Below, piece by piece: positions 4,579-32,621 of a DNA stretch of 64,000 nucleotides (position 1 is the first letter of the stretch; every line of letters starts with the position of its first letter). The DNA lies in sequence record MK524178.1; one strand, written 5' to 3'. Origin of the DNA: Escherichia phage PHB12. The notes under the pieces are model-generated. The model did no database searches. It was given only the letters and a program-made list of their open reading frames with translations, and was not told where the DNA came from. The position numbers and the translations under genes are program-made.

Positions 4579-4883
4579 TATAATGTTCTCTCAAATTTGT
4601 GGAAGCATTTACGGCATTTCAATTTCAAGTTATCAGTGGTCCAGTTAACCAGTTGGACTTGGATAGTTCCACATTCCGGGCATGGATGTTTTGCTGCCGA
4701 TTTGGCAGCATTTTCACGTCGTTCAACCATTTTCATTATTTCGTTCCATGCCGGAGGAACGAACTCTTCTTCACCGTGGATTTTATCTCGCTGAACAAAT
4801 TCAATCTTTGAACTATCGTCAATAAACTTAACCAAGCCATGATTAGTGCTCATATCAATATCCTCTAAAAGACGTAGTTTCAT
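4578..4883 (-). CDS. small protein with C-terminal zinc-ribbon, 101 aa
   Basis: CPECG...CRKC cysteine pairs in the C-terminal 35 residues. Confidence 0.55.
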   Translation of the reverse strand: MKLRLLEDIDMSTNHGLVKFIDDSSKIEFVQRDKIHGEEEFVPPAWNEIMKMVERRENAAKSAAKHPCPECGTIQVQLVNWTTDNLKLKCRKCFHKFERTL

Positions 4884-5833
4884 TATAAAACCTCAATAGC
4901 ATTTCGTAAACCATCAGCTTTTGCATTCAGAGCTTTTAATGATTTAGTTTGTTCTGCAATCTGGGCTTCGACTTCTTTCAGACGAGATTTGAGATATTCG
5001 CGTTCTTCTCTTAAATTATCAACTTTTTCTACTTTAGTCTCTTTAATAGGCTTAGGTTTATACTCGTTAGGGTTCTTCAACTTAATTTGAATGCGAGAAC
5101 TGTATAACATTGAACCATTATCTTCAGTTTCATCATACATTTCTACCACGTCCATAGTCTGTAACATCATACGAAGTTTATAAGACAGCGAACGAACGGT
5201 TTTGTTGCGCTTATTAATTTCTTCGGCTTTCATGGTACCGAGATTACGTGAGTAGTAATAAGGAACCTGGATATCAATTGATAACGATGCAGCGCCATTA
5301 CCGGTTGGTTTGAATACTGCAGTAACCCAATCTTTAACATGAACTTTATTTGTACGACCATCACCGCCTGTGAATAATTTACGTGAATGTTTAAAAAGCA
5401 TATTCACTTGGTTATTGAATTCACAAGCAAATTTATCAGCAAATTTAGTTTCAGGAATGGTAGATAACCAATCAGCCAAATGAGTCTTTTTAACATCGTT
5501 AATAATAGTAAATTCAACCAAATCAGTTTTAGATGTCACAGATTTAATAAAGCTCGGCTTCATAAAGTTTTTAATGTTATCTCGAGCTACAGTAGAAGAT
5601 AATAAACGAGAACGTTTGAACCATTGAAGCAGTGTCCCTAATGAATGAGAATACGCATTCTGAGTATCTTTACAGATATGATTTTCTTGGCCTGTGTATG
5701 TACCAAAATCGCGAAGAATGCCACTTACTACAACTCGGTGTGGAACATCAAATCCTAATAAACCAGAAGCACGTTGGGCATGAACGTTAGCGATAAGACC
5801 TGCAAAATAATCAACATAATGTGAACGTGTCAT
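4883..5833 (-). CDS. hypothetical protein with C-terminal coiled coil, 316 aa
   Basis: ORF track; heptad-like tail (LREEREYLKSRLKEVEAQIAEQTKSLKALNAKADGLRNAIEVL). Confidence 0.6.
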   Translation of the reverse strand: MTRSHYVDYFAGLIANVHAQRASGLLGFDVPHRVVVSGILRDFGTYTGQENHICKDTQNAYSHSLGTLLQWFKRSRLLSSTVARDNIKNFMKPSFIKSVTSKTDLVEFTIINDVKKTHLADWLSTIPETKFADKFACEFNNQVNMLFKHSRKLFTGGDGRTNKVHVKDWVTAVFKPTGNGAASLSIDIQVPYYYSRNLGTMKAEEINKRNKTVRSLSYKLRMMLQTMDVVEMYDETEDNGSMLYSSRIQIKLKNPNEYKPKPIKETKVEKVDNLREEREYLKSRLKEVEAQIAEQTKSLKALNAKADGLRNAIEVL

Positions 5834-15446: not shown

Positions 15447-15925
15447 TCAACAATCACAATTTCTAGTTTAGTGGAATACGTATCTAAAATCTCTTCGATG
15501 ACAACCCAGTTTCCACCACCGATACCTGCACCAATTCTTGGCATATAAATTACAGGCTTTGTTATCTTATTCTTTCCGAATTCATTTAATTCTATTATAC
15601 AATTCATTAAAGCAAAGTACTCAAAATTAGGTCCCGGCTCAAACTGTGTATAAAGATTAAAGCAATAAGCTTTATGGGTCTTAAAATATTTTTCATAAAC
15701 CGAATAAGTCCCGAGTTTAGACTCGTCTCCGAATTCGGTTTGAAGTTTATCGGCTTCTAAAATTTTTGGATAAGCCTTTGCTAATTGTCCTGCCACACCA
15801 GCGCCCATTGTATGAAAACAATTACACCCATGAGCAATATTATTACCTTTAGAAAACAGGGCGACAATATCGCCCTTGATATAGTTTTTAATCACTTGCT
15901 GCAAGTCCTCTAGTATAAGAGTCAA
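15428..15925 (-). CDS. macro-domain-like protein (possible ADP-ribose binding or hydrolase), 165 aa
   Basis: Glycine-rich loops GNNIAHGCNC...MGAGVAGQLAKA and PRIGAGIGGGNW resemble macro-domain signatures; motif-level only. Confidence 0.4.
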   Translation of the reverse strand: MTLILEDLQQVIKNYIKGDIVALFSKGNNIAHGCNCFHTMGAGVAGQLAKAYPKILEADKLQTEFGDESKLGTYSVYEKYFKTHKAYCFNLYTQFEPGPNFEYFALMNCIIELNEFGKNKITKPVIYMPRIGAGIGGGNWVVIEEILDTYSTKLEIVIVDWEPLL

Positions 15926-16235
15926 CTAGACGGTCCACCATAGAATTGCATGCTGCCTTATCTTTAGGTTCCGCCACCGAGCATTCTAATATTTGCCATT
16001 TTTTATGATATCGTTTAATTAAGGTAGACGCCTTGAACCTACTAGACGCCCCATCTTTTTCTCCGTCTTTATATGCGTATAACAATTTTTGTGAAAAATC
16101 TACTTTACACTCTTGACTTTTACCACAATAATCAGATGCCGTTCTGTTTGTATACTCCGTTACATCAGTATATGTAGTATTAGCAAGAGCGTTAAATGAA
16201 ACCAAGCCAACTATTAAAGCCAACATTTTGGTCAT
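15888..16235 (-). CDS. secreted protein with signal peptide, 115 aa
   Basis: N-terminal signal-like MTKMLALIVGLVSFNALA. Confidence 0.5.
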   Translation of the reverse strand: MTKMLALIVGLVSFNALANTTYTDVTEYTNRTASDYCGKSQECKVDFSQKLLYAYKDGEKDGASSRFKASTLIKRYHKKWQILECSVAEPKDKAACNSMVDRLVDSYTRGLAASD

Positions 16236-16774
16236 TCTTTTATTTCCAGTAGTTTATTTGATTTAAGGTAATTAGCCTTTTCTAGGACTTCAGAAGCATA
16301 TTTACTTCCAGCACTTGTCTTCCATCCCGCATTATATGAGGATATAGCTTTTCTTATATCCCCGTTATGTATATTTAACCAATAAGAAAATTCGATATAA
16401 GCCCATCTGGCTGAATTAGACCGCTTAGATAGCATTTTCTTAATTTGGGCATCAGTCATATTATAACCAAGCTGGTTAATTCTTGCCCTCATTGTCGGTA
16501 GATAATTTTGGAACATTCCATACGCATGGTGACCTTTCTTATCTTTAAGATTAATACCGGCAGATGATTCCTGCCATAGTATTGCGGCCATTATGTATCC
16601 AAGTCCTTTCTTATGCATATTTTCATGCGTTTTAAATTTTCCATCCTTAGAAAACTGTTCCCCAAACTGATAAGCATAATTCAAGTTATCGAGTTGGACA
16701 TTACTAAAAGTATGCTCGGAGCTATGTGCTGATAACGAAAGAGCAAATAGACCAGCGAGTAGTGCTTTTCTCAT
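16232..16774 (-). CDS. secreted lytic-transglycosylase-like protein, 180 aa
   Basis: Signal peptide plus SLT-type catalytic motif AILWQESSAG. Confidence 0.6.
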   Translation of the reverse strand: MRKALLAGLFALSLSAHSSEHTFSNVQLDNLNYAYQFGEQFSKDGKFKTHENMHKKGLGYIMAAILWQESSAGINLKDKKGHHAYGMFQNYLPTMRARINQLGYNMTDAQIKKMLSKRSNSARWAYIEFSYWLNIHNGDIRKAISSYNAGWKTSAGSKYASEVLEKANYLKSNKLLEIKE

Positions 16775-16782
16775 GTTTACCT

Positions 16783-17241
16783 CTAGATTTTAATCACTGC
16801 TTTAGAAGCTTTTCCTGGTAGTCGTTTATTGTTAATAATAGCCATTCTGCATTGAAGAGTCTTCATTTTGAATGCTGGATTTTCACGACAAACTGTAAGT
16901 CCTAACCAAAGATTTCCATCAGTTATTTCTAAACGGCCTGGGCGATATTCGACACCTTCGACAAAATCTTCATCAACATCTGGACGGGCCGGCATTGATA
17001 AAAATTCTGCAACTTCTTTAACATGATTTTTTACTTTACGAAATAATTCAAAAACGTAGTTCTCATCTATTTCTCTCTGGATGGCACGATCTAAGAGATG
17101 TTGAGAATACTTGATATGAAAGCCTGGTAGTCCAAGAGACTTTGCAGCATCTTTTATACCGGCATTTATTTTGCGGAACTCCGTTTCAAAGATTCGACGG
17201 AGTTTATTACGGCGGATAAAAACGTCTGAATTGATAGTCAT
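16783..17241 (-). CDS. regB: RegB site-specific endoribonuclease
   Basis: 152 aa; MTINSDVFIRRNKLRR...LQCRMAIINNKRLPGKASKAVIKI closely matches T4 RegB as recalled. Confidence 0.9.
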   Translation of the reverse strand: MTINSDVFIRRNKLRRIFETEFRKINAGIKDAAKSLGLPGFHIKYSQHLLDRAIQREIDENYVFELFRKVKNHVKEVAEFLSMPARPDVDEDFVEGVEYRPGRLEITDGNLWLGLTVCRENPAFKMKTLQCRMAIINNKRLPGKASKAVIKI

Positions 17242-17302
17242 TTTGATTTCTCCTCTAGTTGACAGGTCTATAGTAACACAACTAGAGGAGAAGTAAACTA
17301 CT

Positions 17303-17518
17303 TTATTGATAAAATGGAGTTAAAGCCCAAGATTCTTTAGATACCATGTTGGCGAAATGCCTCATCTCTTCGATTTGGCGACGACGCTGGTCAGCATAGT
17401 CTTCTTCGCCTTCTTCCTTACAATCTTCAAGGTCTTCTTCAAGATACTTTAAGTATTCACTACAAATTTTGTTGACCTTTTCTTGAAAGTCCAATAACCC
17501 AGTAATAGTAGAAGCCAT
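17303..17518 (-). CDS. small acidic protein, 71 aa
   Basis: ORF track; own early-promoter cassette upstream. Confidence 0.5.
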   Translation of the reverse strand: MASTITGLLDFQEKVNKICSEYLKYLEEDLEDCKEEGEEDYADQRRRQIEEMRHFANMVSKESWALTPFYQ

Positions 17519-17784
17519 TAGTATTTTTCCTCAGGTCGAAATACTGCACGACATGCCCACATGCTGGCTTCTTTTAGATGTTGCTTAGCATACTTAAGAG
17601 CCTGCACTGCATCCATATCTTCTTTGGTTTGTTGCTCTGATTCATTTTCTTTCAAGATATATGCTTCTTCAATCAGAGCATCAAACATCAATCCAAGACG
17701 GACTTCTGCATCTTTAATAGCGTTCACTTTACTGATTTTATCATCGGTATGCGGCTTGTAGCCTTTGATGTCTTCAATCGACAT
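17518..17784 (-). CDS. vs.4: Vs.4-like protein (Acb2 cyclic-nucleotide sponge family), 88 aa
   Basis: Internal ATG with SD GAGGAAAT; MSIEDIKGYKPHTDDKISKVNAIKDAEVRLG...KEASMWACRAVFRPEEKY resembles T4 Vs.4 as recalled; position between regB and the YfiD-like gene. Confidence 0.7.
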   Translation of the reverse strand: MSIEDIKGYKPHTDDKISKVNAIKDAEVRLGLMFDALIEEAYILKENESEQQTKEDMDAVQALKYAKQHLKEASMWACRAVFRPEEKY

Positions 17785-17998
17785 AAGGAATTTCCTCATC
17801 GGTGGCAAGGTCATATTCGACCAATTGGATAGGCTCGTTAATACCATATCCACGTACAGTGATATCGGTTGTCGGATATTTTCCAGTAATATCACCCATT
17901 CTAAATGCTTCAGTGAATGATTGCTCGCCTGAGCAACTAAACCAGGCGGCAAAACATTTTAAAACATCTTCAGACCCTTCTATAATCAATTTAGCCAT
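17774..17998 (-). CDS. small protein, 74 aa
   Basis: ORF track; stop overlaps the vs.4 start. Confidence 0.5.
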   Translation of the reverse strand: MAKLIIEGSEDVLKCFAAWFSCSGEQSFTEAFRMGDITGKYPTTDITVRGYGINEPIQLVEYDLATDEEIPYVD

Positions 17999-18360
17999 TA
18001 TAGACTCTCAGTAAAGGTACGAGCGATAACGTCGCGTTGCTGTTCTGGAGTCAGAGAGTTAAAGCGAACTGCATAACCGGATACACGGATGGTCAGCTGT
18101 GGATATTTTTCCGGATGCTTAACTGCATCTTCCAGAGTTTCACGACGCAGAACGTTAACGTTCAGATGTTGACCACCTTCAATTTTAACTTTAGGTTGAT
18201 GTTCAATTTCAATTTCACGGGCATTCAAACCGTAGAAAATTTCCGGGTCTACAATAGCGTCTTCTTTAAAAGTCTTAGAGACGATAATCCGGGCTTGAGT
18301 ACCGTCTTCAAAATAAATAGTGCCTTTATGTGCACCTTCAAGAATTTGATATGCTTTCAT
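17998..18360 (-). CDS. glycyl-radical spare-part protein (YfiD/GrcA-like)
   Basis: C-terminal two thirds match E. coli YfiD as recalled, including RVSGYAVRF. Confidence 0.85.
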
Positions 18361-18366
18361 ATAACC

Positions 18367-18675
18367 TCAATTAGAAAATAAATTTATCCAAGATTTTTCT
18401 TTAATCAAAAATGGGTCGGAATTAAACGCCATTAAACTTTGAGTGATTAATCCCTTAAATGGCCCATCAATAAATTCCATTTTGAAATGTGGAATACTAG
18501 TCATCAACCGTGCATTAGGAGCAGTACAAAGAACGTGCTGCCCTGCGAACGGACCTTTAGTCAAACGATATCGTTTAGGTTTAAAATGGTAAATCTCGTA
18601 ATTTTCTACAAGAGCCCTTTTATTGCATACTGGGCTGTTATAACAATACTCAAAAACTTCAATAGTGGTCATCAT
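18367..18675 (-). CDS. hypothetical protein (about 102 aa from the internal ATG)
   Basis: ORF track frame; likely start MMTTIEVFEY. Confidence 0.45.
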   Translation of the reverse strand: MMTTIEVFEYCYNSPVCNKRALVENYEIYHFKPKRYRLTKGPFAGQHVLCTAPNARLMTSIPHFKMEFIDGPFKGLITQSLMAFNSDPFLIKEKSWINLFSN

Positions 18676-19211
18676 TGCATTCCAATCACAAAAAATTGAG
18701 GACGAGCAATACCGCCGATGCAATATTTGCTTTTGCAGCAGTGCTGTACTGATTTAATATGGACATTGTAAATCTTATCCATATCAGGAGCTTTAATAGG
18801 CTCGTCAATTATATACAGAATACGAGAAAGCGTTAATCCACGGAATTTAGAACCTTCATTGCCAATAAAACTACGGACAGAATCAGTAAATAAACGGAAT
18901 CGAATATCATCGCTAGAATAACGAGAAAATTCTTTTTTAATGTTGCCAACAGAAATTTTAGCATAAGCTGAAGTATTAGAAAGAACAATAACTGTTCCAC
19001 CGTCGTACAGCCAATTAACAGCAAAATTAGTTACTGCGGTCGATTTACCTGATTGTCTGCCGCCGTCTAAACGAAGTGTACAGTACTGCTTGAGTACGTC
19101 TTCAAATGGCGGGATATAACCATTCTTACAAATTTCTTCTACTCTAGCATCAGAATGGTGTGTAAAAGCATTCATCAGGGATAGATAAGGTCCGGTTAAA
19201 AATGTTCTCAT
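18672..19211 (-). CDS. small P-loop NTPase, 179 aa
   Basis: Walker A GGRQSGKST and Walker-B-like ILYIIDEP. Confidence 0.6.
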   Translation of the reverse strand: MRTFLTGPYLSLMNAFTHHSDARVEEICKNGYIPPFEDVLKQYCTLRLDGGRQSGKSTAVTNFAVNWLYDGGTVIVLSNTSAYAKISVGNIKKEFSRYSSDDIRFRLFTDSVRSFIGNEGSKFRGLTLSRILYIIDEPIKAPDMDKIYNVHIKSVQHCCKSKYCIGGIARPQFFVIGMQ

Positions 19212-19484
19212 TTAGTTTCTCTTTTAGGTTGGGCTGTTCCGTGGCACATGAATTGTCCATTTCTGTATTTACCCATTACCGCACTTGGGCTCGACCTTAT
19301 TACAGGTTGGCGGGAATCCCTCATAGAATCATGAGGTCCAGGTTGTTCCCATGTTATTTGAATGTAAATATTTTTGCCTTAATACTTATACCAGTGTGGC
19401 TTCATTAAAATTTTTTCATCGAGTCATTTTACCTCTCCAAGTAATTATGAATATACTATCACAATTTTAGGAGAAAGTAAACTG

Positions 19485-19787
19485 TTATTTACCTTTAATT
19501 ACTTTAGCTGCTTCGATAGCCGCTTGCTGAAGGTCGTCCATAGACATACCGAATTTAGAAGCAAAGTTATCAATTTTCTTTTCGACAGCATTCAAAGGCT
19601 TGGCCTGTTTACCTTCATTAGCGCCAGGAAGAGCGAGAATACGCTCTTTGTCAATATAAAGGCTTACAAGTTTCTTACGGTCTTTATCGGATAAATCATG
19701 AAATGAATGGGCCTTTTTATTTATAGCGGCTTCTAATTTACCTGCACTCACTCGCGCTTCAGTAATAAATTCTTGATATGTTTTCAT
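19485..19787 (-). CDS. internal-protein-like head protein with capsid-targeting leader, 100 aa
   Basis: Begins MKTYQEFITEA, the T4 internal-protein targeting sequence, ending in an LxE-type protease site. Confidence 0.7.
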   Translation of the reverse strand: MKTYQEFITEARVSAGKLEAAINKKAHSFHDLSDKDRKKLVSLYIDKERILALPGANEGKQAKPLNAVEKKIDNFASKFGMSMDDLQQAAIEAAKVIKGK

Positions 19788-19828
19788 ATGTTTCCTTTAA
19801 ATGTAAATAGGCCTAAGTATCGGCCTTA

Positions 19829-20407
19829 TTAATTACCACGGGCTGCATTAGCAACGGCATAAGCGTACTGAACATTAGCGTCTTTAAACGTACCTTTAGA
19901 GGTGTCTATTTCTGCCTTAAAGCCGCCTTTAGCCATAACATCGGCAAATTCTTTACGGAAGGCCATTGCATCAAGACCCTTCCATGATGATTTATGCTTG
20001 GCAAATTCAAGACCTGCGAAGTTGACAGCTTTAGCCAATTTATTATCAATGACCCATTTACCGGCTTTAGGCACAAACTTCGGGCCTTTTTGTTTAGAGA
20101 ACAGTTTTAAATTCCAGCGACGAAGATCACTGTCGGCTTTAACAAAAGCTGCGTCTAAGTTACTAGCAACAACATCTTCAATATGAGCAAATTTAAGTCC
20201 GTCAACTTCAATATTTAGATCGTTACGCCAGCGAAGTCCTTCCCAAGCGAAGGCTTTAAAATCAGAAGCTTTTGTGGCTAGATATCGTTCAAGTGGAGCA
20301 GTTTTAGGGTCGAAGCCGTTTCCACCACGATAAGTCCACTCGTCCTTATTAATGCCTTGAGCTTTTCCTGCAAAGGCCTCGGCGATAAATTCTTTATATG
20401 TTTTCAT
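19829..20407 (-). CDS. internal protein (IPIII-like), 192 aa
   Basis: Begins MKTYKEFIAEA; length close to T4 IPIII. Confidence 0.7.
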   Translation of the reverse strand: MKTYKEFIAEAFAGKAQGINKDEWTYRGGNGFDPKTAPLERYLATKASDFKAFAWEGLRWRNDLNIEVDGLKFAHIEDVVASNLDAAFVKADSDLRRWNLKLFSKQKGPKFVPKAGKWVIDNKLAKAVNFAGLEFAKHKSSWKGLDAMAFRKEFADVMAKGGFKAEIDTSKGTFKDANVQYAYAVANAARGN

Positions 20408-20470: not shown

Positions 20471-20731
20471 TTAAGCTTTACCGCCGGAAATAATTCCGAA
20501 GTTGTTAAAATCGTATCCAATATCGTCGACATCTACTTTAGGGCTTGCTACAACATAAGCAATTTCACTACGTTTTGCATAGGTGTTGATTTCTTTACCA
20601 TCGCCACCTAAGAAAGAATACCCATTACGTTTTAATGAGCCAAAGTCTTCCGCATCACCAATGAAAGCTTTAACTTTAAATTTGGGGTCTTTGGCATCTG
20701 CTTCAATGATAAATTCTTGATACATTTTCAT
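20471..20731 (-). CDS. internal-protein-like protein, 86 aa
   Basis: Begins MKMYQEFIIEA. Confidence 0.65.
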   Translation of the reverse strand: MKMYQEFIIEADAKDPKFKVKAFIGDAEDFGSLKRNGYSFLGGDGKEINTYAKRSEIAYVVASPKVDVDDIGYDFNNFGIISGGKA

Positions 20732-20739
20732 TTTTTTCC

Positions 20740-21153
20740 TTAGTAAATTGATTTACCATAGTATTTGTACCAAGTCGGACGTTGAGCAATTTTTTCATCT
20801 AAGCGTGCTTGACTTATCGCAATGGACGCTTCGGACGGGACGTAATTATTACGAAATTCTACAGGAATGTCGGAAATATCCTGGACTGTCGTGTCCTTGA
20901 TTTTGAAACCACGTTTCAAACATTCGGTGATTAGCTCGATTTGACGTAAACGTAAAAATTCGAGTTTGTCGTAAAAGAATGTTACGTGACCTGTGCCTAA
21001 GATAAATGTTGGAGAGATTTTAAAATCTTTTACACGTTTACCGTTTTGAACATGTTTACGGACTGCACCAAATACGCGTGGTAATTCACGATACTCAGCC
21101 ATAAGATGTTGGTCGGTCAGTTCGGAAACGAGTGTTAAATTGATACGAGTCAT
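20740..21153 (-). CDS. denV: endonuclease V (pyrimidine-dimer DNA glycosylase)
   Basis: [12 protein letters not shown]...[10 protein letters not shown] closely matches T4 DenV as recalled; start refined to the internal ATG. Confidence 0.92.
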
Positions 21154-21211
21154 AATTTCCTCCAAGTAGTTGATGAATGTATAGTATCAAAGTCCTTGGA
21201 GGAAGTAAACA

Positions 21212-21493
21212 CTATTTTTCTGAAGCGCCCGAAATATATTTTTCAAGACGTTGTTTCATCAGCGAGCCGTTCTTAGCGATTTCTTCCGGTTTATCGCACA
21301 TACGCAACAAGGCTTCAAGCTTAACGATATCACTGGTACGTTCAAATTTGCGAGTATCTATCTTACTAGCAAGTTCAGAAATACGTGCTAATAGACTTTC
21401 AGCTTCAACCAAAGCTGCACCTAGCTTAGTTGCAAATGTGTCAGTAGCTTCGTTAAGAATAGATTCTGATAAAAATTCACTATATGTTTTCAT
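21212..21493 (-). CDS. internal-protein-like protein (about 93 aa)
   Basis: From the internal ATG begins [11 protein letters not shown]. Confidence 0.6.
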
Positions 21494-21978
21494 ATATACG
21501 CTTTCCAAGTTCCTGTTTTAAATGTTGAGATTACGCGTTTCGCGCGATTAGGTGTCTGACGATACCATTTAGATTGGGCTAGATTTACTGCCGCTTCGTC
21601 CCAACGTTTCTGTTGAAGCATACGAAGAGAATTAGTAAAACCAGCGACGCCTGCTACACCCATTTGGAAGACCATATTGACCAATGCACATCGACGAACT
21701 GCATCTAAAGAATCATATACCGGTTTAAGTTTAGCATTACCCAAGATTCCGCGAACGGCTTTATCAACGTCTTCATTAAATAGCTTTTCAGCCTCATCAA
21801 GGGTAATTGTACCGTTGCATTTACGTCCGATCATTCTGTCAAGTTCAGCTTTAGCTACGGCTAAAGACGGGTTCTTTGTTACTAAATGGCCTATGCCAAT
21901 CGTCCAAAAGCCTTCAGTGTCTTTGTATAAAGACAGTCTAAGACCTTCGTCATTACGAAGCATTTCAAATATATTCAT
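21490..21978 (-). CDS. e: lysozyme (endolysin)
   Basis: [15 protein letters not shown]...[12 protein letters not shown] closely matches T4 lysozyme as recalled; SD sits in a hairpin (ATACCTCC/GGAGGTAT) at 21980-22005. Confidence 0.93.

Positions 21979-31935: not shown

Positions 31936-32621
<686 letters not shown>

Follow-up and report, generated by a model that had tools for sequence, protein, structure and literature searches.

The vs.4 gene of an RB69-like Escherichia phage: a probable Acb2-type sponge for CBASS cyclic dinucleotides with a hypervariable hairpin tip

The locus described here raises two related questions: where does the protein encoded by a minus-strand reading frame begin, and does this protein act, like its T4 counterpart, as a sponge for the cyclic nucleotides that signal in CBASS defense? 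The window, that is, the whole 64,000-nt stretch of DNA that was analyzed (Escherichia phage PHB12, sequence record MK524178.1), presents in its ORF list a 144-aa minus-strand ORF at 17518..17952, which starts with TTG and contains the vs.4 frame. An initial annotation had placed at 17518-17784 an 88-aa product made from an internal ATG; both the coordinates and the translation agree with ours. Reading from the internal ATG at 17784 yields the 88-aa product MSIEDIKGYKPHTDDKISKVNAIKDAEVRLGLMFDALIEEAYILKENESEQQTKEDMDAVQALKYAKQHLKEASMWACRAVFRPEEKY. The elements of the locus are the following:

17303..17518, minus strand: vs.3 (71 aa), the downstream neighbor, 40% identical to T4 Vs.3 and matching phrog_2037.
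17518..17784, minus strand: vs.4/acb2 coding sequence, 88 aa plus a TAA stop, translated from ATG.
17774..17998, minus strand: vs.5 (74 aa), the upstream neighbor, from the ORF list and phrog_1986; labeled vs.5 in JS09.
17785..17952, minus strand: spurious N-terminal extension of the vs.4 ORF, 56 codons from the TTG.
17793..17797, minus strand: Shine-Dalgarno motif GAGGA, 8 nt upstream of the vs.4 ATG, within the 3' end of vs.5.

Relatedness of the 88-aa protein to T4 Vs.4 had been claimed initially and is borne out by alignment. BLASTP pairs the window protein with T4 Vs.4 (NP_049728.1) over its full length, with identical residues at 56 of 87 positions (64%; E 2e-37). A phmmer search against all PDB chains returned a single significant match, 7uq2_A "Vs.4" (E 7.9e-30), covering residues 3-88. 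Membership in the Acb2 family, the other part of the same claim, is likewise upheld: the protein scores 64.8 bits against the Pfam profile PF24729, Acb2_Tad1_hairpin (gathering score, 27), with all 58 profile positions (1-58) aligned, and it matches phrog_717 with an E value of 1.5e-27. PF24729 is carried by all 120 database homologs listed. PHROG 717 is the group used by Jenson et al. to gather Vs.4 homologs (PMC10097602).

Gene order leads to the same assignment. When the window was searched with T4 proteins (tblastn), the matches fell in the order tk, vs, vs.1, regB, vs.3, vs.4, vs.5, vs.6, vs.7, vs.8, denV, e; the T4 order vs-vs.1-regB-vs.3-vs.4-vs.5-vs.6-vs.7-vs.8 is collinear with it. 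Edwardsiella phage PEi20 has the same gene order, and the position of vs.4 agrees with the T4 and JS09 annotations. As expected of a T-even ortholog, vs.4 is flanked by vs.3 and vs.5 and shares its strand with the rest of the regB-vs.8 early block. T4 Vs.4/Acb2 (PDB 7UQ2; Jenson et al. 2023, PMC10097602) is also 88 aa long and occupies the same slot between vs.3 and vs.5. At 17518..17784 on the minus strand lies vs.4/acb2, and the phage that carries it is an RB69-like (Mosigvirus-type) T-even phage.

The allele itself is already known. Its DNA is 100% identical to that of vB_EcoM-RPN187 and 99.3% identical to that of RB69, where the counterpart is annotated as "vs.4: Vs.4 conserved hypothetical protein" (NC_004928.1); the protein matches QIG57591.1 of phage F2 at every residue (100% identity). 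The surrounding 3.5 kb shows 97-98% nucleotide identity to Escherichia phages NHEP29, SF, JS09 and others, JS09 being classified as Mosigvirus and its record labeling the gene vs.4. The copies in RB69, RPN187, F2 and JS09 represent the same allele, with the same CDS boundaries and no difference of substance. Protein identity reaches at least 95% in about 130 phage records, and more distant alleles occur in about 1,100 more. The window thus carries the RB69-type allele of a gene already catalogued, with nothing new as to gene identity. Most RB69-type records still name the product "hypothetical protein", without an Acb2 label, and no paper joining RB69 and Acb2 was found in the literature searched. 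Two isolates of Mosigvirus belong to the BASEL collection, but no link was found between them and the phages assayed against Panoptes.

The fold was modeled with AlphaFold2 as a monomer, from 121 sequences with the T4 row left out. The model has a mean pLDDT of 85.2 and consists of two helices (residues 14-42 and 50-81); no beta-strands of at least three residues occur in it. Foldseek comparison with the PDB ranks the 7uq2 chains first (TM 0.71-0.74, E 5.5e-7) and also retrieves the Acb2 protein of PaMx33 (8h2j/8h2x, TM 0.62-0.69). The window protein is predicted to fold as a two-helix antiparallel hairpin, the Acb2-type protomer, on which the T4 structure 7UQ2 superposes. PaMx33 Acb2 (PDB 8H2J/8H2X; Huiting et al. 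2023; Cao et al., PMC10312549) shares the Pfam family and the hairpin fold, at a sequence identity of about 13-16% (Foldseek).

Residues that matter in T4 Vs.4 provide a closer reading of the protein. Crystallography and mutagenesis have identified Y8, H11, K23, S74, R79 and F82 as ligand residues: Y8 and F82 stack on the bases, Y8, H11, K23 and R79 contact the ligand through hydrogen bonds or salt bridges, and the S74N change perturbs ligand contacts (Jenson et al., PMC10097602). The hexamer interfaces involve L29, F33, A66, A73 and A77, with T12 acting as a helix cap (PMC10097602). Window Vs.4, unlike the T4 protein, has an extra Ser after the initiator Met; its residue numbers are those of T4 plus one in the N-terminal part and unchanged in the C-terminal part. 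The window protein has all of the dinucleotide-pocket residues (Y9, H12, K24, S74, R79 and F82), none of which varies in a 122-sequence alignment. Also present are hexamer-interface residues L30, F34, A66, A73 and A77 and helix-cap residue T13; in the same alignment, A66 is invariant, and at least 90% of the sequences share T13, L30, A73 and A77. The residues for cGAMP contact and for the hexamer interface are therefore identical in T4 Vs.4 and in the window protein. Y9 and K24 are the equivalents of Y11 and K26 in PaMx33 Acb2, both essential for dinucleotide binding.

The hexamer of T4 Vs.4 holds three molecules of 3',3'-cGAMP with a Kd of about 30 nM, and T4 lacking vs.4 is about 50-fold more sensitive to CBASS (PMC10097602). 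By analogy, we consider it very likely that this vs.4/acb2 gene specifies a hexameric product that sponges CBASS cyclic dinucleotides as T4 Vs.4 does. Like its T4 counterpart, the product would very probably soak up the CBASS signal cGAMP. Six copies of the hairpin would interlock into a hexamer, as deduced from T4 Vs.4. At each of three dimer interfaces, the segment bearing Y9, H12 and K24 and the tail bearing S74, R79 and F82 would close around a single cyclic dinucleotide (3',3'-cGAMP, for instance), held at nanomolar affinity. The CBASS second messenger would in this way be withheld from effectors such as CapV, and as a consequence the infected cell would not abort the infection. We infer hexamer formation, ligand binding, the anti-CBASS phenotype and the ligand range of the RB69-type allele from this parallel with the T4 protein.

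Ligand range deserves separate consideration, as belonging to the family does not by itself determine what is bound: some Acb2 members (e.g., Acb2_43) have switched to 3'cADPR, which they bind instead of CBASS signals. Proteins of the Thoeris-inhibiting Acb2_43 type possess extra N- and C-terminal beta-strands that form the 3'cADPR pocket; the window protein, whose model lacks strands of at least three residues, does not belong with this subgroup. As judged from the alignment, the T4-type pocket residues are intact in window Vs.4, despite the ligand switches elsewhere in the family. A second type of ligand is known from PaMx33 Acb2, which also binds cyclic trinucleotides at the three-fold axis via R67 and T74 (Cao et al., PMC10312549). 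T4 Acb2, with D61 and T68, binds dinucleotides and not cA3, and its D61R variant did not gain cA3 binding (PMC10312549), because the geometry of the T4 helix differs. Unlike the window protein, PaMx33 Acb2 combines a kinked helix with R67 and T74 for trinucleotide binding. Window Vs.4 has Q61 and Q68 at the positions of PaMx33 R67 and T74 (T4 D61 and T68), and we rejected its placement in the PaMx33/JBD67-type trinucleotide-binding subgroup, Q61 and Q68 replacing the Arg/Thr pair. The Arg/Thr trinucleotide site is absent from T4 Vs.4 as it is from the window protein, and the latter is therefore predicted to bind dinucleotides only.

Sponging may also carry a cost. Sequestration of 2',3'-c-di-AMP by T4 Acb2 triggers Panoptes (PMC12657218). 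Since Y9 and F82 are intact, the same liability is expected for the window phage; judging from the T4 case, Vs.4 would probably expose it to Panoptes, a sensor of 2',3'-c-di-AMP sponging.

Conservation is not uniform along the protein, and one segment has to be delimited here:

17590..17673, minus strand: Vs.4 hairpin tip, residues 38-65, hypervariable in comparison with homologs.

Identity to T4 Vs.4 amounts to 30 of 36 positions over residues 1-36 and 20 of 23 over residues 66-88, against 5 of 29 over residues 37-65. The tip proper (residues 38-65) is only 16-17% identical to that of T4, to which it is essentially unrelated in sequence (the same 5/29), and it lacks the two cysteines of the T4 tip (NCEDCE). 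Relative to 121 homologs, mean identity is 83% and 86% in the flanks and 18% in the middle, which also varies in length. Codons of the tip match those of T4 at 28%, 48% and 24% for positions 1, 2 and 3, a random level obtained with indels from an alignment that is unreliable over this segment. The variable part comprises the distal hairpin tip together with the beginning of helix 2. Among its positions are 61, 64, 65 and 68, equivalent to the three-fold-axis pocket in which PaMx33 Acb2 binds trinucleotides; they are occupied by Q61, K64, Y65 and Q68 in the window as against D61, T64, I65 and T68 in T4. As the divergent part includes these pocket-lining positions, the ligand range could differ from that of T4. 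In megablast comparisons, some phages match only nt 1-86 or nt 1-129 of vs.4, at high identity; these partial-gene matches suggest intragenic mosaic exchange.

The tip may act as a neutral spacer or as a surface for specificity or evasion. A functional shift brought about through the tip seems unlikely to us. Such a shift would keep the Acb2 fold and the hexamer while changing or widening the ligand spectrum via the tip and Q61, K64, Y65 and Q68, either by forming a second site for another immune signal or by altering dinucleotide preference. This scenario draws on the contrast between residues 38-65 (18% identity, variable in length) and the flanks (83-86%) among the 121 homologs, on the precedent of Acb2 proteins that switched to 3'cADPR, and on the differences in ligands between Acb2 homologs, the trinucleotide site of which maps to the same helix (PMC10312549). 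However, the canonical dinucleotide pocket is fully conserved, the cA3-binding Arg and Thr of PaMx33 are both absent, the D61R change in T4 gained no cA3 binding, and the model is devoid of the extra beta-strands of Thoeris-type Acb2_43. We accordingly regard a shifted spectrum as improbable. Just as doubtful is the proposal that the tip is a diversifying surface, variable in length and apparently cassette-swapped between T-even vs.4 genes that are otherwise near-identical, and that in the RB69-type allele it adds a further ligand site on the three-fold axis (Q61, K64, Y65, Q68) or allows escape from a host factor that directly recognizes Acb2.

A very improbable alternative to a dinucleotide sponge is that vs.4 has lost the sponge function and persists through linkage, as an inactive relic. 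Nothing specific speaks for it, other than the ease with which T-even phages lose acb2 under Panoptes selection (PMC12657218). Against it, the ORF is intact and provided with a ribosome-binding site, the functional residues are all kept, and the protein is found at 95% identity or more in the roughly 130 phage records mentioned above. Codon comparison with T4 points the same way: in the flanks, positions 1 and 2 are 89-100% identical and position 3 is 46-61% identical, a pattern indicative of strong purifying selection on the protein.

The start codon remains to be considered. Codons 1-56 of the 144-aa ORF gave no match in a PHROG search, and the frame competing with them, that of the 74-aa vs.5, matches phrog_1986 over its full length (E 2.1e-39). 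In the alignment of 121 homologs, the vs.4 proteins start at the same M(S/A)IEDIKGY or MIEDIKGY, and their lengths are 81-98 aa; the N-terminal extension is absent from all 121 of these database sequences. The GAGGA motif in front of the ATG has its parallel in T4, where GAGGAA likewise precedes the vs.4 ATG in the alignment. The records of JS09 (RefSeq) and F2 annotate identical 267-nt vs.4 CDS boundaries. That the real product might nonetheless be the 144-aa protein from the TTG at 17952, with a 56-aa extension added to the Acb2 domain, is close to inconceivable, since the frame being open from 17952 and a weak resemblance between the extension and T4 Vs.5 in its annotated C-terminal part are outweighed by the location of the extension wholly inside vs.5, by a PHROG match to the vs.5 frame and none to the extension, by the complete lack of extended homologs (0/121), by the GAGGA before the ATG and by the curated 88-aa CDS, the similarity to T4 Vs.5 being explained by a 1-nt indel in T4 that shifts the annotated vs.5 into the vs.4 frame. 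The vs.5 overlap, the PHROG results, the homolog starts and GAGGA effectively refute the longer ORF as a gene product. It is an over-extension, as its extra 56 codons fall in an alternative frame of vs.5. The initial annotation had indeed stated that the N-terminus in the ORF list was too long, and the extension, lacking a PHROG match and sitting across the vs.5 frame, proves it right; the ATG at 17784 is the true start of vs.4. On the opposite strand, a 66-aa ORF (17561..17761, plus) found no family match in a PHROG search and was rejected as a gene on this account.

The vs.5 gene of the T4 reference calls for a comment of its own. It is given as 58 aa (4844..5058 of T4 locus L004) and is set apart from the window gene by an indel of 1 nt that follows roughly codon 13. 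The 74-aa vs.5 frame is still conserved in T4 DNA, with 68% amino-acid identity (E 2e-25). Conservation of this frame together with the 1-nt indel makes the T4 reference vs.5 look frameshifted or misannotated.

Genes are tightly packed around vs.4. The final 11 nt of vs.5 overlap the start of vs.4, compared with a 36-nt gap at the vs.5/vs.4 junction of T4. At the other end, the TAA stop of vs.4 and the ATG of vs.3 share one base (TAATG). Stop/start overlaps of the TAATG type are typical of translational coupling, and tight, translationally coupled packing is usual in early gene blocks of T-even phages.

Several neighboring genes depart from their T4 counterparts. The vs.3 segment (17303..17512) has no detectable nucleotide match to vs.3 of T4 or F2, whereas the flanking DNA aligns at 75-97%; its product measures 71 aa, compared with 92 aa in T4, the two proteins being 40% identical. 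vs.3 appears to be a cassette-like replacement that directly abuts the vs.4 stop codon. Two genes upstream of vs.4, vs.6 (120 aa; 17998..18360, minus) encodes a GrcA-like autonomous glycyl-radical cofactor, 93% identical to T4 Vs.6 and scoring 67 bits against Pfam Gly_radical. Further upstream, the vs.8 region (18672..19324, minus) consists of a 38-aa ORF (19208..19324) and a 179-aa ORF (18672..19211) lying in different frames, with an ATGA overlap. T4 vs.8 is a single 219-aa ORF, and JS09 RefSeq annotates the 179-aa part only; the split could reflect a lineage-specific frameshift, or the true gene could be shorter.

Beyond vs.8, a 3' fragment of denV at 19364..19423 is 70% identical to residues 118-137 of T4 DenV, and a full denV lies at 20740..21165. 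Four ORFs that start with MKTYxEF (19485..19787, 19829..20407, 20471..20731 and 21212..21508) resemble internal head proteins; they surround denV in an order unlike that of T4. The segment 19364..21508 looks like a rearranged, plastic internal-protein region.

Signals that might bound the transcription unit were sought by scanning. A sigma-70 promoter scan gave 13 sites, as against 18.5 expected from shuffled sequences, and picked out no promoter for vs.4; no Rfam family reached threshold in 15500..20000. One candidate 3' boundary was recorded:

15858..15876, minus strand: terminator-like GC-rich hairpin with a T-run, from a consensus scan only, directly after vs, which ends at 15888.

This hairpin may possibly mark the 3' end of a minus-strand unit extending from vs.8 to vs and containing vs.4, a tentative reading that rests on the consensus match.

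The initial annotation had also placed a second anti-CBASS gene, 57B (acb1), in the window, and this gene is present:

31936..32391, minus strand: 57B/acb1 (151 aa), from ORF boundaries, tblastn, BLASTP and Pfam.

Its product is 85.5% identical to T4 57B by tblastn and shares 129 of 151 residues with it by BLASTP; it scores 198.2 bits against PF23474, "Anti-CBASS protein Acb1" (cutoff 27). As in T4, 57B adjoins 57A and gene 1. Both H-x-T/S motifs typical of the 2H phosphoesterase fold, HST and HIT, are shared by the window and T4 proteins, and we take these motifs to be the catalytic ones of Acb1 (Hobbs et al. 2022). Acb1 and Vs.4/Acb2 share a purpose, removal of the CBASS signal, but are unrelated in fold and mechanism: the enzyme Acb1 cleaves the signal; Vs.4/Acb2 ties it up and leaves it intact. 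The Acb1 phosphodiesterase, encoded 14 kb from vs.4, would degrade cyclic nucleotides; with cleavage by Acb1 and sponging by Vs.4, the phage would dispose of two independent anti-CBASS activities. Cao et al. note both anti-CBASS functions in T4 itself (PMC10312549).

The result matters little beyond annotation: in place of "hypothetical protein", the gene can be labeled acb2 (vs.4), with the start that gives 88 aa. RB69-like phages carry the Acb1 and Acb2 pair, as T4 does. This pair predicts resistance to most dinucleotide-based CBASS systems, along with sensitivity to Panoptes, and these predictions would be useful when T-even phages are selected or engineered for therapy. The variable hairpin tip would offer a cheap target for chimeras addressing sponge specificity.
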